Positions 4,666 to 17,876 of a DNA stretch of 20,000 bases are shown here, piece after piece. How positions within the stretch are numbered: the first letter of the stretch is position 1; the number at the start of each line of letters is the position of its first letter. Source of the DNA: an uncultured virus (IMG/VR IMGVR_UViG_3300046007_007003) (taxonomy: Duplodnaviria > Heunggongvirae > Uroviricota > Caudoviricetes); the IMG/VR virus record IMGVR_UViG_3300046007_007003; one strand, given 5' to 3'. Position numbers and translations under genes: made by a program. Under the pieces are notes generated by a model. That model saw only the letters and a list, made by a program, of their open reading frames with translations, searched no databases and was not told the origin of the DNA.

Positions 4666-6117
4666 CTACCCATAATACACAACACGCTGCGAAGGCCCCG
4701 CATCCTCCCGACCCCAGTCGTCCGTCGGCAACTGAACAAAATTCCCCTGACGATACCGCATCAACGCCTGCGTCATACTGTCCACATAGTCGTCATGCTC
4801 CCCGTTCGGAAATGCCGCACACTCCTCAATCACCTCGTGCGCCCACTGCTCGTCCGGAGCCCAAATCATCCCAGCCTCAAACAACGGCGCTATACTGTGC
4901 GCCCGGCTGATCTTGTCCTTCCCACGCGACGGCGTAAAATTCACCACAGGTATCCCCATCTGCCTCAACTCATGCGTCAACGGCGTACCCGTCGCCTTCG
5001 CCTCCACAATCACCGTCTCAGGCTCCCAAAACTTGTACTTCTCCCACGCCACACGCTTCAACTCAGGGAAATCCCACCGACCCTTCTCCGCATCCAATAA
5101 CATCAAACTCGGCATCCCAGCCTCGTTCACCTGAAACACACCCCACGTCGTGATCGCAGAATAATCCGCTAACTCAGACTTCGAAAACGCCGTGTCATAA
5201 CTCTGTATCACATACTGCAACTCCGGGACCTTCGATCCCTCCCAAATCTTCCACCACTCACGCTTCAGTATCGCATTCTCCTCACCCGTCGGATTCTGCT
5301 GATACTGCGCATTCCACTTGCTCGGCGGAATCGACGCACGAACCTTCTCTAACTCACCAACAGGCCAATACTCAGGCCAGCAACTCCGCCCACTCGGCAA
5401 AATAGCAGGTAACTCCAAAACCTCCCAAACATCAGCCCGCGGATCACGAGCCTGAGCCTTCAACAACTGACCCGTCAGATCCTTCTCACTCCACCGCGTC
5501 ATCACCACAATAATCGAACCACCCGGCTGCAAACGCTGCCGAGGTCCACCCGTGTACCAGTCCCAAGCATCCTCAAAACCAGAACTGCTCATCGCAGTCT
5601 GTTCTGAATGTGGGTCATCGATGATCACCAAGTCACCACCACGACCCGCCAAGTTCGACCCAACACCAACAGCATAATACATCCCACCACGGTCCGTGTC
5701 CCACCGACCACTCGCCTTACTGTCCGCCGCCAACCGCACATCAAACACGTCCTTGTAATCATCCCGGTCCAGCAAATTCTTGACCTTCCGGCCAAAACCT
5801 ACCGCCAACTCCGTCGTGTGCGTCGCCTGAATGATCTTCATCGACGGGTTCCGACCCATCATCCAAGCCGGAAACAAGTAACTCGCAAACTCACTCTTCG
5901 TGTGCCGCGGGGCCATGTTCACAATCAAACGCTTCAGCTCACCCCTCGCTACACGCTCCAACCTCTCCGCAATCAAACGATGATGCTCGCCAGCAATGAA
6001 CTCAGGCCAAACAGACCTCACAAACGACAGAAAATCACCCTGAGAACGCTCCCTACGCTCCAACTGCGCAAGCCTCAGTTGAAGTTTCAGAAGTCTCTCG
6101 TCACGGCCCTCGGACAT
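4666..6117 (-). CDS. terL: Terminase large subunit (Terminase_6-type ATPase + RNase H-like nuclease)
   Basis: Walker A variant NMAPRHTKS, Walker B LVIIDDPH, motif III VMTRW, QYQQNP, nuclease QSYDTA and FPNGEHDDYVDS. AGGAGG RBS. Confidence 0.97.
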   Translation of the reverse strand: MSEGRDERLLKLQLRLAQLERRERSQGDFLSFVRSVWPEFIAGEHHRLIAERLERVARGELKRLIVNMAPRHTKSEFASYLFPAWMMGRNPSMKIIQATHTTELAVGFGRKVKNLLDRDDYKDVFDVRLAADSKASGRWDTDRGGMYYAVGVGSNLAGRGGDLVIIDDPHSEQTAMSSSGFEDAWDWYTGGPRQRLQPGGSIIVVMTRWSEKDLTGQLLKAQARDPRADVWEVLELPAILPSGRSCWPEYWPVGELEKVRASIPPSKWNAQYQQNPTGEENAILKREWWKIWEGSKVPELQYVIQSYDTAFSKSELADYSAITTWGVFQVNEAGMPSLMLLDAEKGRWDFPELKRVAWEKYKFWEPETVIVEAKATGTPLTHELRQMGIPVVNFTPSRGKDKISRAHSIAPLFEAGMIWAPDEQWAHEVIEECAAFPNGEHDDYVDSMTQALMRYRQGNFVQLPTDDWGREDAGPSQRVVYYG

Positions 6118-6137
6118 CGGGATACCTCCTGTATGCT

Positions 6138-6166
6138 AAGATATACGACTAAACGCTGGCTTACAA
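6138..6166 (-). promoter_or_regulatory. Sigma70-like promoter for terL: TTGTAA-N17-TATCTT, with AT-rich upstream tract
   Basis: On the minus strand, -35 is at 6166-6161 and -10 at 6143-6138, with exact 17-nt spacing, followed by AGGAGG and ATG at 6117. Confidence 0.65.
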
Positions 6167-6211
6167 AAATACAATACCCGGGGGTAGGGGACCCATGAAG
6201 CCCTTCGTACA

Positions 6212-6227
6212 CGTTTCACGTGAAACA
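6212..6227. promoter_or_regulatory. parS: parS-like centromere palindrome CGTTTCACGTGAAACA
   Basis: 15/16 match to the universal chromosomal parS consensus TGTTTCACGTGAAACA, with a perfect 14-bp core GTTTCACGTGAAAC. Intergenic. Confidence 0.8.
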
Positions 6228-6435
6228 TACGACGGATCGCATACCGTTGGTAGAATTTAGGTACCATTTTTATTTTGGAACGTGATTGTTTGTAACGAAC
6301 ATGGCCCAAGCGCCCGTTCGCTCGGCCACCCGGCCGCGCTGCGCGGCTCGCATCGCGCCGTCACCGGCTGCGCGCCGGTAGCCTCTATTGCGGCCGGGGC
6401 CCCGTGCGCCGGGCGGCGCGGGGCGCGCGCCGGGC

Positions 6436-6463
6436 GGGGCGGATCGCGGATCGCGGATCGCGT
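6436..6463. repeat. 7-bp repeat array (ATCGCGG-type) in GC-rich non-coding DNA
   Basis: ggggcgg atcgcgg atcgcgg atcgcgt. Confidence 0.75.
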
Positions 6464-6617
6464 GCCGGTTGCGCCAGGTCGAGATCCTGGCACAACTGCC
6501 GGTTGGGCGCGGCGCGCTCGATCTCGGCACCGGGATCCAGCTGGCCGGGATCCAGCAAGCGAAAGCCCCGCCCGGCGGACCGGACGGGGCGAGGGCAGGC
6601 CAGCGGATCGCGGCGCG

Positions 6618-6791
6618 TCAGGCGGGGCGCGCGGGCTCGAGCAGGCGGGCGGCGCGCGCCTGCGCGATGTAGCTGCGGGCGGCGGCGATGGCCGCGCGCC
6701 GAACGCCCGGGTTGCGGGCGGCGGCGGCGTAGCGGCGACGGGCGGCGGCGCACGAAAGATCGAGCGCGGACCAATATCCAAGCCGGTTCAT
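6618..6791 (-). CDS. Small basic Ala/Arg-rich hypothetical protein, 57 aa (MNRLGYWSALDLSC...)
   Basis: Start re-called at ATG 6791, which forms an ATGA overlap with the stop of the upstream gene. Confidence 0.55.
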   Translation of the reverse strand: MNRLGYWSALDLSCAAARRRYAAAARNPGVRRAAIAAARSYIAQARAARLLEPARPA

Positions 6792-7030
6792 GCCGCGCCC
6801 CCGACGTTGAAGGCCGCCGCCTGACGCGCGGACCAAGGCCCGCGCTCGAGCGCCGCGATCTCGGCCGCGCGCAGCGGATAGGACCGGCCGCTAGCGTCGA
6901 TCCGTTCCCCGTCGACGATATAGGCGAGTGATCCGCCCGGGGCGCGGGGATCCCCGCACCACCACGCGGAAAAGCGGGAGCGTCGGCCGGGGATCCGGAT
7001 GCCGTGATAAACGTGTGTTGCGTTTGCCAT
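6788..7030 (-). CDS. Hypothetical early protein, 80 aa (MANATHVYHGIRIPGRRSRFSAWW...)
   Basis: Start re-called at ATG 7030 with AGGAGA RBS, downstream of leader-repeat copy 1. Confidence 0.7.
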   Translation of the reverse strand: MANATHVYHGIRIPGRRSRFSAWWCGDPRAPGGSLAYIVDGERIDASGRSYPLRAAEIAALERGPWSARQAAAFNVGGAA

Positions 7031-7046
7031 TGGTAGAGTCTCCTGC

Positions 7047-7099
7047 GGGCGGGATTGCCCGCCCCCACCCTCGCATATCTTCGCAGCATCGGGCAAGCG
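7047..7099 (-). promoter_or_regulatory. Early-gene leader repeat copy 1: CGCTTGC-N15-TATGCGA followed by GGGCGGGCAATCCCGCCC hairpin
   Basis: Plus-strand gcaagcg at 7093-7099, tcgcata at 7071-7077, hairpin at 7047-7064. Matches the copies at 7982 and 9258. Confidence 0.8.
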
Positions 7100-7135
7100 T
7101 TATTTCCAACAAAATAAGGGGCGCGGAGGGCGGGT

Positions 7136-7177
7136 TTCACGGGGCGCGGATCGCTGCCCTCGGGGCGCGGATCGCGG
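7136..7177. repeat. 7-bp repeat array (NNCNCGG x6)
   Basis: ttcacgg ggcgcgg atcgctg ccctcgg ggcgcgg atcgcgg. This is the reverse complement of the unit type at 11358-11406. Confidence 0.7.
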
Positions 7178-7212
7178 GGGCCGGTTTCAGCAAAGCAGGG
7201 GCGGAGGTTGCC

Positions 7213-7265
7213 GTTGTTTATCACTCGATAAATAAGAGGAGGTTGTTTATCACTCGATAAATAAG
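7213..7265. repeat. Exact 24-bp direct repeat x2 (GTTGTTTATCACTCGATAAATAAG), each containing the palindrome TTTATC-N4-GATAAA; operator-like
   Basis: Copies at 7213-7236 and 7242-7265 (period 29 bp), forming an AT-rich island in very GC-rich DNA. Confidence 0.9.
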
Positions 7266-7273
7266 GGCGCGGC

Positions 7274-7307
7274 AAAGAAAAACCCCGCCCGGCTGAACCG
7301 GACGGGG
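7274..7307 (-). terminator. Rho-independent terminator after the beta-clamp-like gene
   Basis: Minus strand CCCCGTCCGG-TTCAG-CCGGGCGGGG-TTTTTCTTT. Confidence 0.85.
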
Positions 7308-7338
7308 CGCGGCGCGCGGCAAGCTCGAGCGGGGCGCG

Positions 7339-7959
7339 CTACTCGGCAGCCATGCGGGCGGCGGCGCTGGCCTTGCGCGTCATATCCGCGACCATCGATT
7401 TAAGCTCGGCCGGGTCGCGCTTGTCCGCGTTTCGGTATGGCATGCAGAGCCCGAAAATATCGGACCGGCCGTAAAAGGTCACAAGCGCGGGGGAGTGTCC
7501 GCAATGGTGAACCTGCGGCTTGCTGAGCTTGTCGCCGAGCATGACAGCCGCCTTGCGGAAGCCTTCAAGATAGGCGGGGTCGTATTGCGCCAGCGTGCCA
7601 AGCTCGGCCATGTCCGGCATGACGCGGGACCAGTCGGGGAAGCTGCCATCGACGGGGCGGAAGAGGATATCCCCAAGAGTGTAAGCACCGCCGCGCCGGG
7701 CGAGACCGATACCGGGGGCCTTGTGCCCCTTCAAAGCCCGGGCGATAATCTCGGCCGGGATGATAAATTTTTCGCCGGGGATGATTTCGGGCACGCGCGC
7801 GACCATCAGGCGGTGCCCGTCAGTTGCGACAAGGTGCAGGGTCGCGCCGTCAGGCTCGACCGAGACGCCTTGCAGGTAGTAGCGCGTCTCTTCGGTCGAT
7901 ACGGCAAGCGCGACGGCGCGCAGGATATCGCAGGGCAGAGTAACGTCGAAGTCGGACAT
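7339..7959 (-). CDS. Truncated DNA polymerase III beta (sliding clamp)-like protein, 206 aa
   Basis: Start re-called at ATG 7959 (AGGAG RBS). AVSTEETRYYLQGV...LVATDGHRL and VDGSFPDWSRVMP correspond to DnaN central-domain motifs and the linker to domain 3. The N-terminal domain is absent. Confidence 0.82.
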   Translation of the reverse strand: MSDFDVTLPCDILRAVALAVSTEETRYYLQGVSVEPDGATLHLVATDGHRLMVARVPEIIPGEKFIIPAEIIARALKGHKAPGIGLARRGGAYTLGDILFRPVDGSFPDWSRVMPDMAELGTLAQYDPAYLEGFRKAAVMLGDKLSKPQVHHCGHSPALVTFYGRSDIFGLCMPYRNADKRDPAELKSMVADMTRKASAAARMAAE

Positions 7960-7981
7960 TGGCAGGGCTCCTAAAGCAAGC

Positions 7982-8036
7982 GGGGCGGGATTGCCCCGCC
8001 CCGTGTATCGCATACGCTCGGCCGCGAAGGCAAGCG
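7982..8036 (-). promoter_or_regulatory. Early-gene leader repeat copy 2
   Basis: gcaagcg at 8030-8036, N15, tcgcata at 8008-8014, hairpin GGGGCGGGGCAATCCCGCCCC at 7982-8002. Confidence 0.85.
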
Positions 8037-8042
8037 GTAATT

Positions 8043-9236
8043 TTATGCGACCTTATCCAGCATCGCCCCGGCGCGCTTTTCCAGCTCCACCCGGTCGTCC
8101 TGATGCGGGACGTCCCGCGCAACGGCGGTAATCGCCTGCGCGACGTCCCATACTGACGCGACCGGGCGGCCTTCCTCTTCAAGGTGCCGGGCGGCGGCGG
8201 CCTTCGCCATCCGCTGCGAAAGCCCGGCGCGCTTAGTCAGGAAATCGAGCCGATCATCGTCATCCTTGGCGATGATCGCGTCCCGCGCCGCCTTCACCCC
8301 GTCGAGGAATTTTGCGGTCGCACCCTGCGCGAAGGATTGCAGCGCCGGGCGGGCTTCCGCCGCGAAGCGGTCCGGGGCGAATTTTGTATGCCGGATCTTG
8401 ATTTCCTGAAAATTCTCCACGCCCCAGAGGTTGCGGTTCATACAGACGCCGCGGAGATACATTGCCGCAATTCCGGCGGTTTTGCTGCCCGTCTCACTGT
8501 TCCAAGCGTAGAAGCCCCGGAAAACAAGGTCCGGCTCGCCGTTTGCAAGTTTCCCGATCTCGATCGGGTTGCGATCATCGACGAGGAAAACGAAAACGTC
8601 GCGGTCGCTGGCGAAAAGGGTTGTGGTTTCCATGCTAACCGGGATTTCGGGATCATACACGGCCAAGCCGTTGCGGCTGCCAACCATCATGCCCGGCACT
8701 TTCCAGCGGCCTTCGCTGGCATCGACAAGCCGCTTGATCGGCTCAATGATTTCCCAATCGTGGATGCGGCCATAGTCGGGGCCGGTGGCGGCGCGCAACT
8801 CGCCCGGCACGGCCCCCGCTTCGCTGTCGTAGAGCTTCACCAGTTCTTTGCCGCGATTATAGCGCAGGCCCCATTGCAGGCAGTCAGCGGCCAGAGGGGC
8901 CGGGAGGTCGCGCAGGTAGCCCGCCGGAGCACCGGCCAGCGTCGCGACCTGTGAGAAGGACCAGTGCGTCGGGGCCGTCATGTTCTCGGCGCGGTTCTCG
9001 TCGGTGTATTCGATCAGGACGGAGCCGGTCGTCGGGTTGGCCTCGTCGATCTCACCGACCACCTTGATCTTGTGGGTGTTGACGATGCGGCTGTCGAGGC
9101 GGCGCGCGTCGGCTTTCTTGTGCGTCAGCATCGCATCCAACGACAGGAATTTTTCGTCGGCCGGGCGGCTCCACCATTGCGCGGAAACCGCGCCGTTGCC
9201 GATCCCGTGAGCGAAAGCGTTGGTCTGGTAGGTCAT
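8043..9236 (-). CDS. DUF932-family protein, 397 aa
   Basis: Start re-called at ATG 9236 (GGAG RBS). Motifs WWSRPADEKFLSL, PTHWSFSQ..LAGAPAGYLR, LRAATGPDYGRI, FRGFYAWNSETGS, YLRGVCMNRNLWG and IRHTK, as I recall from DUF932 proteins of alphaproteobacterial plasmids, ICEs and phages. Confidence 0.82.
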   Translation of the reverse strand: MTYQTNAFAHGIGNGAVSAQWWSRPADEKFLSLDAMLTHKKADARRLDSRIVNTHKIKVVGEIDEANPTTGSVLIEYTDENRAENMTAPTHWSFSQVATLAGAPAGYLRDLPAPLAADCLQWGLRYNRGKELVKLYDSEAGAVPGELRAATGPDYGRIHDWEIIEPIKRLVDASEGRWKVPGMMVGSRNGLAVYDPEIPVSMETTTLFASDRDVFVFLVDDRNPIEIGKLANGEPDLVFRGFYAWNSETGSKTAGIAAMYLRGVCMNRNLWGVENFQEIKIRHTKFAPDRFAAEARPALQSFAQGATAKFLDGVKAARDAIIAKDDDDRLDFLTKRAGLSQRMAKAAAARHLEEEGRPVASVWDVAQAITAVARDVPHQDDRVELEKRAGAMLDKVA

Positions 9237-9257
9237 GTCACTTGCTCCAAAAGTGAA

Positions 9258-9311
9258 GGGGCGGGATTGCCCCGCCCCCTCTGTCGCATAACCTCGCACA
9301 GTGTGCAAGCG
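9258..9311 (-). promoter_or_regulatory. Early-gene leader repeat copy 3
   Basis: gcaagcg at 9305-9311, N14, tcgcata at 9284-9290, and a hairpin at 9258-9278 identical to copy 2. Confidence 0.85.
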
Positions 9312-9324
9312 GTTTTTTCGGAAA

Positions 9325-9621
9325 TTATCGGCCCGCCTCGACGACGGACGCCTCGGCCTCTAGCGCCCGCTCGATCTGCCGCACCGCGTGCAGTCGTGCG
9401 AAGTGGACCGCGCAGTCACGCCGGTAGGTGTCGGGCTGTCCGGGATAGTCGCGCCCGTTGGGGACCAAGATGCCGAGACGCTCCTGCAAGAGGCGCAGCG
9501 CATCCAAGGCGCTGATTCGGTCCTCGATCAAGTGCGCCCGCGCCGACCCGTTGAGGTTGAAAATCGGGCGCATCGGCTCGTCGAGCATGGGCGGGCAGTA
9601 AATCGGGCTTTGCTGGTTCAT
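9325..9621 (-). CDS. Hypothetical phage protein, 98 aa (…PIFNLNGS…PNGRDYP…)
   Basis: Start re-called at ATG 9621 with a GGAGGAGG RBS. Confidence 0.75.
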   Translation of the reverse strand: MNQQSPIYCPPMLDEPMRPIFNLNGSARAHLIEDRISALDALRLLQERLGILVPNGRDYPGQPDTYRRDCAVHFARLHAVRQIERALEAEASVVEAGR

Positions 9622-9693
9622 TCTTACCTCCTCCGGTTGCCGTTCCGAAAACCACCCCGCCGCGCCTTGGGCATGGGGCGTCGGGACACATCG

Positions 9694-9722
9694 TCCCACA
9701 CTTCGCGGCCGTATAGCAGGCG
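9694..9722 (-). promoter_or_regulatory. Degenerate leader repeat copy 4: CGCCTGC-N15-TGTGGGA
   Basis: Same spacing as copies 1-2, with 1 and 2 mismatches in the two boxes. It lacks the GCAAT hairpin. Confidence 0.5.
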
Positions 9723-9748
9723 GCCGATCCAGTCGATCAGGAAGAACA

Positions 9749-10000
9749 TTAGGCGGCGTCCTCTGCCAGAGCATAATGCGCGGCGATCTCATAACAGTTG
9801 ATCTCGCCCAGCGCACAGTTGATCAAGTCAGAGAACAGCCCCCACTGCGGCGGCAAATCCGCCAGCATATTGTTGAGCGTATCCTTGATATGCGCGGCGC
9901 AAATGGTCTGCCCTTCGTCAATCTCCTGCTGGAAATAATCGCCCAGCCACAGGTTTACGAGCCACGTTTCCTTGTTCGGCCATCCGTTGTAGTTGGCCAT
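9749..10000 (-). CDS. Small acidic phage protein of the YNGWxNxETWxVNLW family, 83 aa
   Basis: ATG 10000 with GGAGG RBS. The N-terminal YNGWPNKETWLVNLW motif is common in small phage early proteins (possibly DUF7249; unverified). Confidence 0.8.
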   Translation of the reverse strand: MANYNGWPNKETWLVNLWLGDYFQQEIDEGQTICAAHIKDTLNNMLADLPPQWGLFSDLINCALGEINCYEIAAHYALAEDAA

Positions 10001-10043
10001 TGGTAGGTCCTCCAAAGCACCGCCGCACCATCGCGGCCCGCAG

Positions 10044-10072
10044 AAGGTATGCGATCATCCGCGACAGGTCAA
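10044..10072 (-). promoter_or_regulatory. Sigma70-like promoter TTGACC-N17-TACCTT, overlapped by an inverted TATGCGA box
   Basis: -35 at 10072-10067, -10 at 10049-10044. Plus-strand tatgcga at 10048-10054. Confidence 0.72.
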
Positions 10073-10480
10073 GGCCAAAACATCTTCCCATGGCGGCGGC
10101 CACTGCCAGAGGCCGACAGGCTCGACCGCGTCGACCCCGTCCATCCTCAGGGCGACCGCGTCGCGGCCGTGGAAAAGATAGAGCGACCTCGGACGATCCT
10201 TGCCCGCCGACCTCTCGACCAGAACCCAAACGCTCGCGTGCCCGTGCCGGGTCAACCATGCGACCTGATGGGGACTCAGCGCGACCGCCCTCGTGCCGGT
10301 CGTCTTGAGTTCCAGAAAGTGGAACCGGCCCGCCTCGTCACAGAGCAGGACGTCCGGGACGCCCGGCATGGCCCAAGTCTCAATCCTCGTCGTCGTCCAC
10401 TGCGTCGGCATCTTCGATAGTGCCTGCCGGAGGGACGCCCAGAGTTTGCTTTCCGGGGTTTTCGTTGGGCGTGACGTCAA
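10055..10480 (-). CDS. PD-(D/E)xK nuclease (VRR-NUC / Holliday-junction-resolvase-like)
   Basis: ESKLW...RIET...PGVPDVL...FLELK...LSPHQVAW motif pattern. TTG start overlapping the terS 3' end; start position uncertain. Confidence 0.85.
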   Translation of the reverse strand: MTSRPTKTPESKLWASLRQALSKMPTQWTTTRIETWAMPGVPDVLLCDEAGRFHFLELKTTGTRAVALSPHQVAWLTRHGHASVWVLVERSAGKDRPRSLYLFHGRDAVALRMDGVDAVEPVGLWQWPPPWEDVLALTCRG

Positions 10481-11015
10481 TCACCGATCCTCCCAGTTCT
10501 TGAATGGCCCGCAGCACTTCTTCCTTGCTCATCGAGTCGATGCTGCCGTGCCGGATTTCAGATTTGCTGACGTAGATGTTCCCGTGCGCCATGCCGCGCC
10601 GGACCTCGGCCTGCACGGCGGCAGAATACTTTCCATTCGCCAGCGCCTCGTCGCGGATGATCTGCAAGTCGCGCAGGTGCCGCTCGAAGGTGATTCCATA
10701 CATCTCATCGAGCTCAGACCGATATTCCCGAATCTTCTTGGCGATGTTGGGATACAGACGAGGATTCATCATCCTGTGGGCGGATTGGTGCGCCGAGGCG
10801 GGGGCAAAGCCTGCGTTGATCGCGGCCTGTCGGGCCGTGATCTGCCCGTCCTTCGACACAATCTCCTTGACGAAAAGCTCCTGCTTTCTGGTCAGGGCCT
10901 TCGTCACAGGGGCCATCGGCATGTCTTTGGGCCTTTTGGCCCGGTAGGCAACGCTTGAGTCGCGTTTCTGGATCTTCAAGGCAAGCTGCACTTGCTTCTC
11001 GACTTCATCGCTCAT
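10380..11015 (-). CDS. terS: Terminase small subunit, 211 aa
   Basis: Start re-called at ATG 11015 (MSDEVEKQ; a later start is possible). LTRKQELFVKE...ARQAAINAGF...SA...AHRMM..P.IAKKI is an HTH pattern of Terminase_2-type TerS, followed by SAAVQAE..RG and a VIDVTP tail. Confidence 0.82.
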   Translation of the reverse strand: MSDEVEKQVQLALKIQKRDSSVAYRAKRPKDMPMAPVTKALTRKQELFVKEIVSKDGQITARQAAINAGFAPASAHQSAHRMMNPRLYPNIAKKIREYRSELDEMYGITFERHLRDLQIIRDEALANGKYSAAVQAEVRRGMAHGNIYVSKSEIRHGSIDSMSKEEVLRAIQELGGSVIDVTPNENPGKQTLGVPPAGTIEDADAVDDDED

Positions 11016-11417: not shown

Positions 11418-12032
11418 TCACCTCGCCCCATCCTTTCTGACGACCCACACTGCTTTGAGTGACGCGCCGTAGGACTGTCGTTGTGAGTATGGGATTTCCT
11501 TGACTGGGATGGGTTTGACGAGGGCTTTTCGGGTGAGTCTATCGAGTGCGCCTTTGGTTGCTTGTCTAGAGATGGAGAGTTTGTGTGCGATATCGACGAT
11601 GGCGAGTCCTGTTGGGTATGCTGTCAGGATTTTCATGATGAGTTCGTCTGTGGGGTTTGTCCCTCCGGGTTGGTATCGTGCGTAGGCTGCTTTGATGATG
11701 AGGTCTGGCCCCGGGTCGGCCCCCATCCCTGCGCTGCCCTCTGCGCCCCGCTGGGGCCCATCCCCGGCATTCGGCTGGGTTGGTGCCTGAATTCCTTCCC
11801 TGCCTGCCCACGGCCTTCCTAGGCGCGCTGACGGGGTGCGCGGGGCGGCGTCGTCTATGTCCCGCGGTGCTTGTCGGCGTTGCGGGTTAGCGGTCAAGGT
11901 CCGTGGTCCGTGGTCTATTTTGAGTGCTTCGAGTTCTTCGGCTCTATGTCTGTGGATAGCGTCGGCGATTTGGGCTTCGTATTTTGTGGCGAGTTTGGCG
12001 TTGAGGTTGTAGGCTGGGATGAGGAGGTTCAT
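11418..12032 (-). CDS. Putative DNA-binding protein with C-terminal winged HTH, 204 aa
   Basis: Start re-called at ATG 12032 (AGGA RBS). ELIMKILTAYPTGLAIVDIAHKLSISRQATKGALDRLTRKALV...AVW fits a wHTH pattern. Confidence 0.7.
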   Translation of the reverse strand: MNLLIPAYNLNAKLATKYEAQIADAIHRHRAEELEALKIDHGPRTLTANPQRRQAPRDIDDAAPRTPSARLGRPWAGREGIQAPTQPNAGDGPQRGAEGSAGMGADPGPDLIIKAAYARYQPGGTNPTDELIMKILTAYPTGLAIVDIAHKLSISRQATKGALDRLTRKALVKPIPVKEIPYSQRQSYGASLKAVWVVRKDGAR

Positions 12033-12066: not shown

Positions 12067-12261
12067 TCATCGGTTGCTCCGTGGATAATACTCGTCGAGT
12101 TTGCCGTCTTCGACGGCGCAGCGCAGTAGCTCACGGGCTACATCTGAGAAGGGACGGTTAACGAGGAGGGCGTGTATGTTAACCGCGTCGAAGACATGCT
12201 GGTCCATCGTGATGACGATGCGTGGATCGCTGTCCTCGGTCAGGTAGTGGCCCTCGGCCAT
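12067..12261 (-). CDS. Small protein, possible ribbon-helix-helix regulator, 64 aa
   Basis: ATG 12261 with TGATG coupling. RIVITMDQHVFDAV...NRPFSDVARELLRCAV has a beta-helix-helix pattern. Confidence 0.6.
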   Translation of the reverse strand: MAEGHYLTEDSDPRIVITMDQHVFDAVNIHALLVNRPFSDVARELLRCAVEDGKLDEYYPRSNR

Positions 12262-13715: not shown

Positions 13716-13915
13716 GACTTCCCCTCCAGCGCCGCGATCCGATCACGTAACTCCTTGAACAGCCGGAACTGCCGCAGCCAGTTCCTGTTTCCAGCAAGCG
13801 GGCTCGTGTCGAAACCCAACTCGCGCATCAACTCCACGCGCTCGGCTTCCTCTTCCGCAGTCAACGGCGTCTCGACAAACGCCAAGCGCGGCTTTGGGTC
13901 TTTCTTCTTTGTCAT
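13712..13915 (-). CDS. Hypothetical protein, 67 aa
   Basis: ORF track entry, GAGG RBS, 4-nt overlaps with both neighbours. Confidence 0.72.
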   Translation of the reverse strand: MTKKKDPKPRLAFVETPLTAEEEAERVELMRELGFDTSPLAGNRNWLRQFRLFKELRDRIAALEGKS

Positions 13916-14163
13916 TTCATCGGCCTCATCGGTGGCACCGGCACGGGAACGTAGCGCGGTTTCAGGTTGTCAGGTCTCGGCGGCGGCACGGGCACAGGCT
14001 CGTGCAGCACCACATTCTCACAGCGAACCACAGCGCCGGGGTCATCCTCGGCGATCAGGTCCTGCATCGCTCGGCAGTGCGCCGGGTCAGCGTACATCCC
14101 AACGTACCCGCTCCACATCGGAGACAGCGTCACGCTGAGAACAGTCACAGTCAGTAAGGACAA
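13912..14163 (-). CDS. Small protein with hydrophobic N-terminus and PVPVPPPRP tail, 83 aa
   Basis: Start re-called at TTG 14163 after GGGAGGGGAG. Confidence 0.6.
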   Translation of the reverse strand: MSLLTVTVLSVTLSPMWSGYVGMYADPAHCRAMQDLIAEDDPGAVVRCENVVLHEPVPVPPPRPDNLKPRYVPVPVPPMRPMK

Positions 14164-14303
14164 TCTTCTCCCCTCCCATAGGCCGCCTTCGACGGCTCTC
14201 GCTTCGGTTGCTTCGGTGATTGTACCACGGGCCTCGGAGCTAGGGCCTGCGCCCGCAGCTCCTGCTCCAGCCACTTGGGCAGCGGCTCCTCATGCGTCGC
14301 CAT
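14151..14303 (-). CDS. Hypothetical protein, 50 aa (MATHEEPLPKWLEQELRAQ...EDCPY)
   Basis: My translation. AGGAGG upstream; fills the gap between neighbours. Confidence 0.6.
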   Translation of the reverse strand: MATHEEPLPKWLEQELRAQALAPRPVVQSPKQPKREPSKAAYGRGEDCPY

Positions 14304-14457
14304 CTTCACTCGCCTCCTTCCGTCTGGCGTCGAGGTGTTCAGCTACCCACCACGCCCAGAACGACACGGCCTCCGCGTCTTCGTCGGGTTTTTCAAAATC
14401 GAAGTGACGAAGAAGTTCTTTCATCGCTGCGATTGCTGCTTTTTCTTTGAACGTCAT
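14290..14457 (-). CDS. Hypothetical protein, 55 aa (MTFKEKAAIAAMKELL...AWWVAEHLDARRK)
   Basis: My translation. GGAG RBS; starts 1 nt after the upstream stop. Confidence 0.65.
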   Translation of the reverse strand: MTFKEKAAIAAMKELLRHFDFEKPDEDAEAVSFWAWWVAEHLDARRKEASEDGDA

Positions 14458-14650: not shown

Positions 14651-14810
14651 TGCTCCCTCCGATCACCTTCCTCAGTCGCTCCAAGTCCAGAACCAGCTTC
14701 CTCTTGTCCTCGGAAAGCTGCTTGATCAGTTCTGTCATCCTAGCCAGTTCGCTCCGTTGCTTGGCTAGCTTGCTCCGCATGATCGCGTTCTCGTCTTCAT
14801 CACGCTGCAT
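14643..14810 (-). CDS. Coiled-coil hypothetical protein, 55 aa (MQRDEDENAIMRSKLAKQRSELARM...)
   Basis: My translation. Fills the gap, overlaps both neighbours, and shows a heptad Leu pattern. Confidence 0.62.
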   Translation of the reverse strand: MQRDEDENAIMRSKLAKQRSELARMTELIKQLSEDKRKLVLDLERLRKVIGGSNG

Positions 14811-14991
14811 CAGAAAAGTTCCCTTGCACTTTCTTCAGTCGGCCATCCCGGTATGTGATGCCGAACTTCTTTGCTGCGTTGAACACTGCCTGAATGCTGA
14901 CGCCGAGAGCAGCCGCTGCTTCTGCCTTGCTCATCCCTGCGTTGGCGCACTCGATGTATTTGTTCACGCCCACCATCTTCTTCGTTGCCAT
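14800..14991 (-). CDS. Small helix-turn-helix DNA-binding protein, 63 aa
   Basis: GMSKAEAAAALGVSIQAVFNAAKKFGI is a typical HTH; GGAGG RBS. Confidence 0.8.
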   Translation of the reverse strand: MATKKMVGVNKYIECANAGMSKAEAAAALGVSIQAVFNAAKKFGITYRDGRLKKVQGNFSDAA

Positions 14992-15753: not shown

Positions 15754-16849
15754 CTATCCTTTCATGTTGAACTTGATGACCTGACCGAACGGCGCATGGC
15801 GCAGGCCGCACGACACCCAGAGGACGGGGTAGTCGGGCGCATCTTTTGGGAAGTCGTTGATCTCAAGGTCGGTGAAGCTGATGAAGTGATCGACCTCGAT
15901 CTGATTGTCTTCGATGTAGTCAAACACCGGCCTGACGAGGGTGCCGCCCCGGCCCTTGGCGTTGAGCATGGTGATCGGTTCGCCCTCTTCGTATCGGGTG
16001 ACCGACTGGATCGAGTAGTCGCAGGCGATGACTGTGATGCTGGCGGGGCGCAGTTCCTCTGCCAGTGCGTTCATGGCACCGAGAAAGTAGGTCAGTGCCT
16101 TGTCGCTCACCGAGCCGCTGGTGTCGTTGTGGATGACGATGTGCCCGACACCCTTGCGGTCTGAGGTGGGGGCGATGATCCGGCTGAGGTGATACATCTT
16201 CCGGTTGGGTCGACGCATACTGTAGTCGTCTGGCTGGTCGCCTGTGAGGTGGCGACGGATCGCATCCTCGAAGTTTATCTCGGGGTCTTGCATCTCGCGG
16301 ATCATTTCATACGCCCACCCCGGCAGCTTGCCGCGACCCTTGGCTATTGCCGACGCCATGATCACGCGCTGCTGGACCTTGATTTCCTCTTGCTTCTTCT
16401 CCTCTTCGGACATCTCAGGCTCGAACACCAAGCCCCATGCTGGGGGGGGCTATGTCGTCCGGCAGGAGATCGTAGATTTTCTCTGCCGAGTATTCCGCGA
16501 ACAGCGGCATATCGATGCCGCCATCCGGCAATTCGAAACCATCCGCCTTCAGGATGTTGTTGATCGCCGCATCGCAGGCGATGTTCCACTTGTCGTGGTT
16601 GCGGTTGCCCTTGCGGAGATGATGTCGCAGGGCGATGTGCAGAACCTCGTGCGCGATGAGGCCGAGGGTCTTCGGCTCTGTCAGGGTGTCGATGAAGGGA
16701 CCGGACCACTTGATCCAGTCGCCATTCGTTGCTGCTGTCCCCATGGTGTCGTCGCGGCTAACGTCGGAGCCCATCGCGAGCGAACCATAGAAGGGGTGAT
16801 GCAGGACGAGCCGGGTCATAGCCCGGCTGACCTTGAGTTCTGGTGTCAT
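15754..16849 (-). pseudogene. DUF2201-type HExxH metallopeptidase + vWA domain gene, split by a 1-nt frameshift in a C8 run (16442-16449)
   Basis: The N part (ATG 16849 to stop 16415) has PFYG, TAATNG, AHEVLH, WNIACDAAIN and SAEKIY. The C part (to 15754) has RRPNR, the MIDAS motif DTSGS, GRGGT..PVF, FTDL and PVLWV. Deleting one C gives ...DIAPPAWGLVFEPEM... and a single 364-aa ORF. It could be an intact gene with a sequencing error. Confidence 0.82.
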
Positions 16850-16856
16850 GTTGCCC

Positions 16857-17876
16857 TCAGAGTACGAGTTTTGAACCATCGTGCAGCGCCCACTCGCGGA
16901 CGGCTGCATTCTTCTTGAGGCTGGGATCACGGGACCATGCGTCCTTGATCGTGAACGCTGCCAGTTCGCGGTTGGGCAGTCGCTTGAGGTAGGCGATGAT
17001 CTTCGAGACGTTCCTGTCTGTCGCTCGGTTCGAGAGGGAAGCACACAGGGCATACCGGATCGCGGAACTGGTCGGGATGGGCGCTTTGTCCGGGTCTGCG
17101 ATGACCATGTCAGGGTCTGGGCATTCCTTGGCGTTCTCAAGGTAGCCCATGAAATCGATGGCAGCAGGCTCGCCGATCTGGCCCATCAGTGCCTGCATCG
17201 ATGCCTTCGGCGACATGCCGAGGTTGATGATCACCGACGCGCGCTGCCATGAGCGGGGCGAGGGGCACGAGTCAACGTCCCGGTCGAACTTGTGCAGGAA
17301 CTCAGGGCGGAAGCGCAGGAAGGAGCGGATGCGGGTGTCCACACCGACCATCGAGAAGTAGGCGATGGTGTCTTCGAGGTCGGCCTCGACCGGAACGAAG
17401 GTCAGTCGGTCGCGCAGATGGGTGGGCATGGTGTTGGCACCGGCACGATCCGATGTGCGGTTGCCAGCGGTCACGACAACCCAGCCATCCGGCAGGTAGT
17501 GGGGTCCGACGCGCCGCTCGTTGACGATCTGGGCGGCGATGTTCTGGCAGGGGACGGGGCCTTGCACCAGTTCATCGATGAACAGGACACCCTTGCCCTC
17601 GCTCGGCATCCAGTCGGGGCGCATCCGCTGCATGGTCGTGCCATCAGCAGACGGCACAGGCCAGCCGCCGAGTTCGCCGGGGTCATACTGTGCAAGCGAC
17701 AGGACCGAACAGTCGATGCCCATGTCCTTGCAGATATCCTTGACGATGGTCGTCTTGCCGAGGCCCGGACCACCGACGAGGTAGGGCACCACGTTCTGGG
17801 CGTCACGCCCGGAGGTGTTGGACATGTTCCACTTGATCGATGCCTCGACGATCTCGCGAGCGACTGACAGTTTCAT
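16857..17876 (-). CDS. MoxR-family AAA+ ATPase
   Basis: Walker A GGPGLGKT, Walker B VLFIDE, TAGNR, Arg finger LRDR, sensor-2 PSPRSW. Adjacent to a vWA gene. Confidence 0.92.
   Translation of the reverse strand: MKLSVAREIVEASIKWNMSNTSGRDAQNVVPYLVGGPGLGKTTIVKDICKDMGIDCSVLSLAQYDPGELGGWPVPSADGTTMQRMRPDWMPSEGKGVLFIDELVQGPVPCQNIAAQIVNERRVGPHYLPDGWVVVTAGNRTSDRAGANTMPTHLRDRLTFVPVEADLEDTIAYFSMVGVDTRIRSFLRFRPEFLHKFDRDVDSCPSPRSWQRASVIINLGMSPKASMQALMGQIGEPAAIDFMGYLENAKECPDPDMVIADPDKAPIPTSSAIRYALCASLSNRATDRNVSKIIAYLKRLPNRELAAFTIKDAWSRDPSLKKNAAVREWALHDGSKLVL

Follow-up and report, generated by a model that had tools for sequence, protein, structure and literature searches.

A variable, probably early gene array between the nuclease and terminase genes of an HTVC023P-type phage, with predicted promoter-hairpin leaders overlaid by a tandem box

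The window analysed here, a 20,000-nt stretch of an uncultured member of Caudoviricetes (IMG/VR IMGVR_UViG_3300046007_007003), belongs to a genome (G000) of 66,335 bp, a single contig (C1) rated 100% complete. On its minus strand lie, in order, terS, a VRR-NUC-like nuclease gene, an array of open reading frames (ORFs) of 83, 41, 98, 397, 206, 80 and 57 amino acids (aa), a terminator, a GC-rich spacer and terL. The array carries three exact copies of a leader that we tentatively interpret as a host-type promoter fused with a hairpin; over it lies a tandem box, which a phage protein likely reads. The original prediction had placed the cassette between terS and terL; this holds for the terL side, but the array does not directly follow terS and is bordered upstream by the nuclease gene. 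The features are as follows (L-numbers, used below, are loci of relatives).

10055..10480, minus: VRR-NUC-like nuclease gene, upstream border; overlaps the end of terS (10380-about 11014)
10044..10072, minus: first-unit promoter predicted from the sequence, -35 TTGACC 10072-10067, 17 nt, -10 TACCTT 10049-10044; reverse boxes TCGCGGA 10064-10058 and TCGCATA 10054-10048, from a genome scan for box pairs
9749..10000, minus: cargo ORF, 83 aa, acidic (isoelectric point 4.05), DUF7249
9624..9749, minus: cargo ORF, 41 aa, of a family seen in 20 regions
9325..9621, minus: cargo ORF, 98 aa, no family, closest relatives only
9237..9310, minus: leader 1, -35 TTGCAC 9308-9303, 17 nt, predicted -10 GACAGA 9285-9280; boxes TGTGCGA 9300-9294 and TATGCGA 9290-9284; hairpin about 9281-9255 (z -3.67), T-rich tail, then GGAG; predicted +1 near 9273
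8043..9236, minus: DUF932-family protein, 397 aa (Pfam E 7.6e-6)
7960..8050, minus: leader 2, -35 TTGCCT 8033-8028, 18 nt, predicted -10 GATACA 8009-8004; box 8014-8008 and additional reverse box TCGCATA 8050-8044; hairpin 8003-7981 with a terminator-like score (terminator scan), then GGAG-CCCTGCCA-ATG
7339..7959, minus: two-domain beta-clamp-fold protein, 206 aa, of a stand-alone phage family
7282..7308, minus: intrinsic-terminator-like hairpin 3' of the clamp-fold gene (terminator scan)
7213..7265, no strand: a 24-bp sequence present in two identical copies, each with the palindrome TTTATC-N4-GATAAA
7031..7098, minus: leader 3, -35 TTGCCC 7096-7091, 18 nt, predicted -10 GAGGGT 7072-7067; boxes GCTGCGA 7087-7081 and TATGCGA 7077-7071; hairpin without T tail, then GGAG-ACTCTACCA-ATG
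6788..7030, minus: cargo ORF, 80 aa, basic, no family; in 8 regions, its position shifted
6618..6791, minus: cargo ORF, 57 aa, not detected in L004
6565..6590, minus: intrinsic-terminator-like hairpin at the array end
6212..6227, no strand: host-type parS palindrome CGTTTCACGTGAAACA, 15/16 to consensus
6132..6148, minus: box pair TCGTATA-N3-TAGCATA over the predicted terL promoter
4666..6117, minus: terminase large subunit, downstream border

Across the 66.3-kb genome there are exactly three copies of the motif GCTTGC-N14/15-TATGCGA, at minus-strand positions 9310-9284, 8035-8008 and 7098-7071, each followed by a GGGCGG(G)GCAATCCCGCCC hairpin and GGAG; codon-block shuffles contain none (0 exact copies, mean of 30). 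The three promoter-plus-hairpin leaders first noticed in this DNA are thus exact and unique in the genome. A supposed degenerate fourth copy at 9694-9722 was rejected: it has no TTG and lies inside the conserved 41-aa ORF (9624-9749), in relatives its bases change along with the codons, and it is best regarded as coding sequence at chance level, the relaxed pattern being expected about 2.8 times per genome as against five non-exact matches. The fifth unit, described as a canonical sigma70 promoter overlapped by the inverted box, does have a likely promoter with reverse boxes, but TTGACC-17-TACCTT (5/6 + 3/6) is not fully canonical; it was missed by a consensus scan and keeps -12T, -11A and -7T. 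An equivalent promoter is also found 3' of the nuclease gene in the relatives inspected.

Relatives reveal two types of leader. In the forward-box type, to which all three window copies belong, TATGCGA is located at -27 and -17, its last two bases form -12G and -11A, and TG occupies -15/-14. The reverse-box type consists of a separate terminator followed by a TTGACA/TTTACT-17/18-TATAAT-like promoter with TCGCATA, TCCCATA or TCTTATA at -27, -17 and -7. Among 133 distinct leaders the forward class numbers 34 and the reverse class 65, with another 34 falling under neither rule. A box is present in 125 of the 133, compared with a mean of 11.5 (maximum 24) after base shuffling and with 12/342 coding chunks, the box consensus itself having been drawn from these leaders. 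The spacing of the boxes was not so derived: same-orientation pairs at exactly 10 bp number 69, as against 0.005 in shuffles, and a further 12 pairs are inverted at 11 bp. The geometry TTG-17/18-(-10) is present in 99/133 leaders, the window's three copies having the non-consensus -12G. This promoter register is supported by two observations: the 34 forward-box leaders have -9A in 82% and -7T in 68%, neither position having been used in choosing leaders, and the independent phage L092 has seven hairpin-GGAG leaders behind TTGACG-17/18-TA, with no box. Likewise, the unrelated cassettes L092, L116, L143 and L151 combine canonical TTGACG/TTGACA with the same hairpin, and with TA or GA at the same position. 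Together these features make TATGCGA as a -10 element a disfavoured reading; it is probably one box of a 10-bp tandem site at -27/-17/-7, laid in either orientation over sigma70 promoters with 17-18-nt spacers.

The hairpin also appears to differ from its first description. In forward leaders it starts 3-6 nt 5' of the predicted +1; the eight nucleotides after it contain on average 5.0 T in forward-box and 1.8 in reverse-box leaders, and a terminator lies just upstream of 37/65 reverse-box leaders as against 0/34 forward-box ones. The hairpin of the window copies, straddling the predicted +1, thus looks like a terminator. Its stems comprise 26 distinct arm pairs, 98.9% paired versus 53% with arms dealt among leaders, a figure from per-sequence folding that is partly true by construction, the arms having been defined by folding each sequence; pairing is thus maintained through many base changes. 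An RNAalifold consensus of 19 leaders gave zero pairs because stem lengths differ, and Rfam matched nothing at E<=1 in 6100-10500.

Several points tell against this account of the leaders. The leader classes required a box 17-18 nt from TTG, which renders those positions partly circular, and the construction of the stem-pairing figure has the same effect. The -12G is unusual in a -10 element, and a consensus scan called no minus-strand promoter in the region. Moreover, the stem that remains from the predicted +1 still folds (mean -10.4 kcal/mol), 9273-9258 being scored terminator-like; hence a leader could attenuate its own gene, and such self-attenuation of the cargo is possible.

Other elements accompany the leaders. 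By eye, AT-rich TAA(C/T)TTT..AAAA tracts precede TTGC in DUF932 leaders; leaders 2 and 3 of the window have shorter ones. DUF932 leaders (for example in L008, L011 and L016; window about 9312-9330) also contain a second imperfect palindrome, TAA(C/T)TTT-N-AAA(G/A)TTA, which lies upstream of or over the -35 and may be an UP element or a second operator. Outside the array, G000 has further box-bearing predicted promoters at C1:10720-10760 and C1:2000-2040, one with facing TTGACA hexamers. The phage contigs L176, L177, L183 and L188 have the same hairpin, with forward boxes shifted by 2-3 nt relative to the -10. Between the clamp-gene terminator and leader 3 lie the tandem palindromes of 7213-7265, possibly decoy or regulator sites; L007 has different ones at about 9970-10050, namely TTGTGCATAAATGCACAA twice and a further palindrome.

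Cargo was compared in two sets of loci. One was chosen by DUF932 (the best 80 of 267 DUF932 loci, near-duplicates included), and full nuclease-to-terL regions numbered 44, counting the window and two GenBank phages; a second set of 79 new loci was chosen by TerL, which removes the DUF932 bias. The 44 regions contain 52 ORF clusters, and 42 of them, with 8 doubtful clusters dropped, spell 30 distinct gene strings while keeping the leaders; two families are found in both orders. Breakpoints can be placed with L003 and L004, relatives at 94-97% identity to the window: the match ends exactly at 10001|10000, the base before the ATG of the DUF7249 gene, and resumes at 9764, two other ORFs replacing the gene. 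Contigs of independent runs contain the same 9764-10001 swap. In L004 an extra 70-aa ORF is inserted between two CTACCAATG copies at leader 3. The CT(A/G)CCA-ATG context, pointed out earlier at 7030, 7959 and 10000 and indeed present there, therefore marks a real exchange point. L074 and L028 differ by a two-gene module between two leaders, and contigs of two lake or freshwater runs join 6622 to 6805 across the 57-aa ORF. No leader-to-leader joints were found in contigs of 4 runs, a source that drops rare variants. The sequence comparisons thus show gain, loss and reordering of cargo genes while the leaders around them are conserved, the breakpoints falling at a leader or a start codon, in line with the earlier proposal that the leaders are recombination points.

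In the TerL-chosen set, the present DUF932 gene occurs in 9 of 29 loci with both borders; a profile search recovered DUF932-family genes in 20/32 loci and clamp-fold genes in 8. L095-L097 show that the slot is common rather than fixed: their nuclease gene lies 18 nt from terL, and in L096 the array is upstream of it.

Regarding the cargo proteins, the DUF932 assignment made earlier stands. The model of this protein is confident (predicted local distance difference test, pLDDT, 94.9) and has no clear solved relative, none of its matches reaching Z>=8. Weak OB-fold-like matches of its N-terminal domain (Z about 6) hint at nucleic-acid binding. DUF932-family genes recur in the array slot in several subfamilies, and DSL-LC04 also carries one; the 'integrase' label of the DUF932 protein in ZS04 found no support in fold searches. 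What had been called a beta-clamp fragment turns out to be a whole two-domain protein (pLDDT 94), with 208 homologs among candidates of 113-361 aa, most of them about 200-230 aa. It is not a full DnaN, as the bacterial beta clamp has three clamp domains and about 370 aa, and it scores 48.9 bits against TIGR00663, whose cut-off is 137.65. For the rest, Pfam and PHROG gave no informative family for the cargo tested, PADLOC returned no match for six cargo ORFs (the 41-aa ORF not among them), and a set of 30 cargo proteins, drawn from the window and its relatives, yielded only DUF7227, GP88, Kyano_Gp96 and a weak DpnD/PcfM match. The clamp-fold and DUF932 proteins make an action on host DNA transactions the most likely role of the cargo.

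An anti-defence role, also suggested earlier, is possible for some of the cargo; that it should be the main function strikes us as rather unlikely. Being small, variable and probably early, the ORFs resemble anti-defence genes in general, and the recurrence of DUF932-family genes in the slot, at the frequency given above and in DSL-LC04, agrees with such a function. Conversely, the only recognizable cargo fold is that of a replication clamp, and no characterized anti-defence family was matched in Pfam, PHROG, NCBIfam or PADLOC, libraries that were not built for anti-defence genes.

The timing of the array is illuminated by its phage group. Matching DNA comes mostly from lake and freshwater metagenomes, placing the array in a freshwater phage. 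Its TerL is 63.5% identical to that of HTVC027P, 61.2% to that of DSL-LC04 and 56.6% to that of HTVC023P; HTVC027P and HTVC023P are Pelagibacter phages. With these closest TerL matches, and a gene order of terS/nuclease, small genes and terL shared with HTVC023P and HTVC027P, the genome is by sequence that of an HTVC023P-type phage. Of the known marine phage groups, theirs is reported to be the most abundant (bioRxiv 10.1101/2019.12.14.876532). No RNA polymerase or sigma factor is known from them, and the one transcriptome study describes the function of every early gene as unknown (PMC12753301). In HTVC027P six genes, gp34-gp39, make up the Early rows; each of them lies between the nuclease gene and terL, and they reach about 2e5 transcripts per million, while terL is Late (PMC12753301 Table S3). 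By analogy the window array is likely transcribed early. The HTVC027P early proteins are not homologous to the window cargo, and only the position is shared, which weakens the analogy. HTVC027P (L081, about 7630-7930) also has an unannotated plus-strand nuclease homolog, and a parS match inside that coding sequence may be a coincidence. The earlier view of a modular, first-expressed array with its own regulatory grammar is supported in that cargo varies while leaders persist, and in that the slot is Early in HTVC027P; the roles given to TATGCGA and the hairpin appear to have been misread.

A candidate reader of the box is encoded by a short gene after the DNA polymerase gene (G000 C1:2633 onward, minus strand), whose product and that of low-GC relatives share 61% identity. 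All members of this family searched (10/10) match the ribbon-helix-helix (RHH) profile RHH_5 (best E 1.8e-6), the G000-type member falling below the curated cut-off; the best PDB matches are Arc (E 0.001-0.02) and an Atlas search returned an RHH_5 11% cluster. Across relatives the protein has an invariant beta-strand and an invariant G-R-T loop motif; a G-X-T loop motif is noted for RHH proteins in passages of PMC2812701. The gene is present in 7/7 near-complete relatives and in HTVC023P, and 16 of 17 distinct promoters of the gene bear an exact box. It was not found in DSL-LC04 or in three unrelated DUF932 phages, where tandem boxes are absent too; DSL-LC04 has 1 box in 4.4 kb. We regard binding of the box by this conserved Arc-like protein as somewhat better than an even prospect, and are a little less sure that repression is its main effect. 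Other candidates were rejected. DUF932 itself is excluded as the box binder by the lack of boxes in the DUF932 leaders of Mae-JY30, S-ESS1 and ZS04. The other regulators of the window, a winged helix-turn-helix (HTH) protein at 11418-12032, an RHH-like one at 12067-12261 and an HTH protein at 14800-14991, occur, among the loci compared, in the closest relatives only, a finding limited by short contigs.

Based on these features we lean, without great assurance, towards a model of an early variable array in which each leader is a host-sigma70 promoter plus hairpin, overlaid by a tandem box that the Arc-like phage protein putatively binds to time expression. Soon after injection, host RNA polymerase would fire each leader (-35 TTGCNN, 17-18 nt, -10 GAnAnT, TG at -15/-14). 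In forward-box leaders the T-tailed hairpin would halt read-through from the previous unit, the new transcript keeping a weaker stem only. Later, the RHH protein would bind the boxes as adjacent dimers, damping its own promoter along with those of the array. The cargo would be shuffled by homologous recombination from one leader copy to another, so that a captured gene would gain promoter, insulator and switch at once.

Certain observations sit poorly with this model. The sole RHH promoter without an exact box, a degenerate one, is that of G000 itself. L092 possesses the RHH gene, yet none of the seven leaders of its cassettes bears a box. Boxes also occur at the predicted late terL promoter, which plain early shut-off leaves unexplained. 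In HTVC027P, gp21, a Middle gene (PMC12753301 Table S3), has a box-bearing promoter, and its RHH match is weak (E 0.035 in one search, missed in another); the boxes of this phage are in another register.

It is conceivable, if unlikely, that a host regulator reads the box, or that the phage RHH protein is an activator or general timer instead of an early repressor. Such a role would suit the presence of boxes at predicted early, middle (RHH) and late (terL) promoters, the poor -10 of forward-box promoters, which might need help, and the retention of the RHH gene in L092 without cassette boxes. It fits less well with boxes that overlap -10 and +1 in both orientations, as an operator over these elements is suited to steric repression. 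The box is also kept, with the invariant RHH beta-strand, across relatives of 36-63% GC that probably have different hosts, and is missing at the DUF932 genes of the three unrelated phages; to our knowledge there is no host box of this sequence, and none was found.

Quite unlikely, although compatible with the leader model, is the explanation that the array is a genome-end module akin to an SPO1-like terminal repeat or first-injected end, with the end or pac in the spacer before terL, and would be early by entering first. In this region a shift in GC skew lies near 6250, the edge of the spacer carries a conserved GGGCCATGTT motif, and 28 of 79 terL loci end within 700 nt upstream of terL, versus 7 downstream. 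Against this, contig starts scatter, often in tandem repeats, with no sharp single-base terminus, and variable cargo plus repeats suffice to account for them; contigs bridge the spacer, and in L095-L097 the array lies upstream of a nuclease gene that abuts terL.

Finally, TATGCG as the -10 of a short-spacer promoter for an alternative or phage-modified polymerase, with the hairpin as a 5' stabilizing stem at +1, is very improbable: the TATGCG-to-hairpin distance does equal the TATAAT-to-hairpin distance of reverse-box leaders, where the hairpin looks like a 5' stem, and TA at -12/-11 is more usual than GA, but a 12-13-nt spacer would be needed, the bimodal 17/18 spacing exists only in the other register, canonical TTGACA-TAAAGT promoters carry this box in reverse orientation, the box-free leaders of L092 combine the same hairpin with TA in precisely the place of GA, and no sigma gene was found in G000.

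Downstream of the array, the parS at 6212-6227 is the only one in the genome and lies between array and terL, 110 nt before terL; it matches the chromosomal palindrome TGTTTCACGTGAAACA at 15/16 positions, that consensus being taken from PMC7383237. G000 proteins gave no match to ParB, tyrosine integrase or sigma-70 region 2. In 47/52 terL-containing loci, from the DUF932-chosen set together with three from GenBank and counting near-duplicates, the terL leader has a parS, often in two copies; in the TerL-chosen set it is present in 16/69 terL leaders and anywhere in 29/79 loci; the exact 14-mer occurs in 14/28 whole records versus 0 in the reversed control. The site is therefore selected but clade-dependent. 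In other subclades parS lies 2-4 kb downstream of the terL start. According to the respective papers, phi29 uses host ParB (PMC2731898) and ParB can repress promoters adjoining parS (PMC5521831). A more ambitious and distinctly doubtful extension of the leader model would be a plug-and-play early regulon, in which the leader provides whatever gene recombines behind it with a host promoter, an insulating terminator and an orientation-free operator, one RHH protein switches the array, and host ParB at parS helps to gate or place the late programme. The spacer at 6300-6550 and its counterparts in relatives are GC-rich, with GATCCG-type repeats and the conserved GGGCCATGTT motif at the end, and are a candidate pac or origin region.

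Elsewhere in the genome, a 463-bp stretch occurs twice with 93% identity, at C1:4-466 (the contig start) and C1:60191-60653 (window about 13856-14318), which may reflect strain mixture, duplication or an assembly effect. Window 15754-17876 encodes an AAA ATPase and DUF2201 (VWA/metallopeptidase) gene set, with DUF2201 apparently split over two ORFs.

These observations probably locate the early genes of HTVC023P-type phages, and the leader motif can be used to find them in uncultured genomes. In the open-access literature searched, we found no description of the leaders, box or parS in this group. The candidate operator-regulator pair is open to test in vitro or with cultured HTVC027P, and the cargo pool, with its DUF932 subfamilies, DUF7227/GP88, two-domain clamp folds and many ORFans, offers a focused set for host-takeover and anti-defence screens.

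Among known systems, the early block gp34-gp39 of HTVC027P shares with the window array the phage group, the slot between nuclease and terL and, going by the transcriptome tables, strong early expression, and HTVC027P also has related TCCTATA boxes and a weak RHH homolog; its cargo proteins differ, and promoters are not mentioned in that paper (PMC12753301). Like Bacillus phage phi29 with its host-type parS (PMC2731898), the present phage bears sites of the chromosomal consensus while lacking a ParB match of its own; here, however, one or two sites lie in the leader of terL, and among cultured phages the nearest relatives have proteobacterial hosts. With the Arc/MetJ/RelB repressors, as outlined in sections of PMC2812701, the candidate regulator has in common a short RHH, the G-R-T loop motif, boxes on one helix face and boxes at its own promoter, whereas its putative targets would form a shufflable regulon in a lytic-looking phage and not one operator.

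The closest parallel in organization is provided by the PeSL cassettes of T4-type phages (RB49/phi1, PST, nt-1). According to passages of the papers describing them, these too are repeated intergenic units with a sigma70-like promoter, an AT-rich upstream tract and a G/C stem-loop, and include a class with the stem-loop downstream of the -10 in a composite promoter-terminator layout (PMC2839356, PMC4122927); variable ORFans lie alongside, and close relatives differ by indels between copies (PMC2839356). Termination and mini-circles are reported there for PeSLs, whereas the T tails and terminator scan of the present leaders are suggestive only, coming from sequence. PeSLs are defined from hyperplastic regions of T4-like myoviruses, and the present array, a single one at the early/late border of a 66-kb podovirus-type genome of the HTVC023P type, is thus PeSL-like rather than a member as defined. 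What the present leaders add, relative to the passages on PeSLs in those papers, is an orientation-free tandem box, with a phage protein as its candidate regulator. The cassette principle is already known from T4-type phages, and a shared switch would be the new element.

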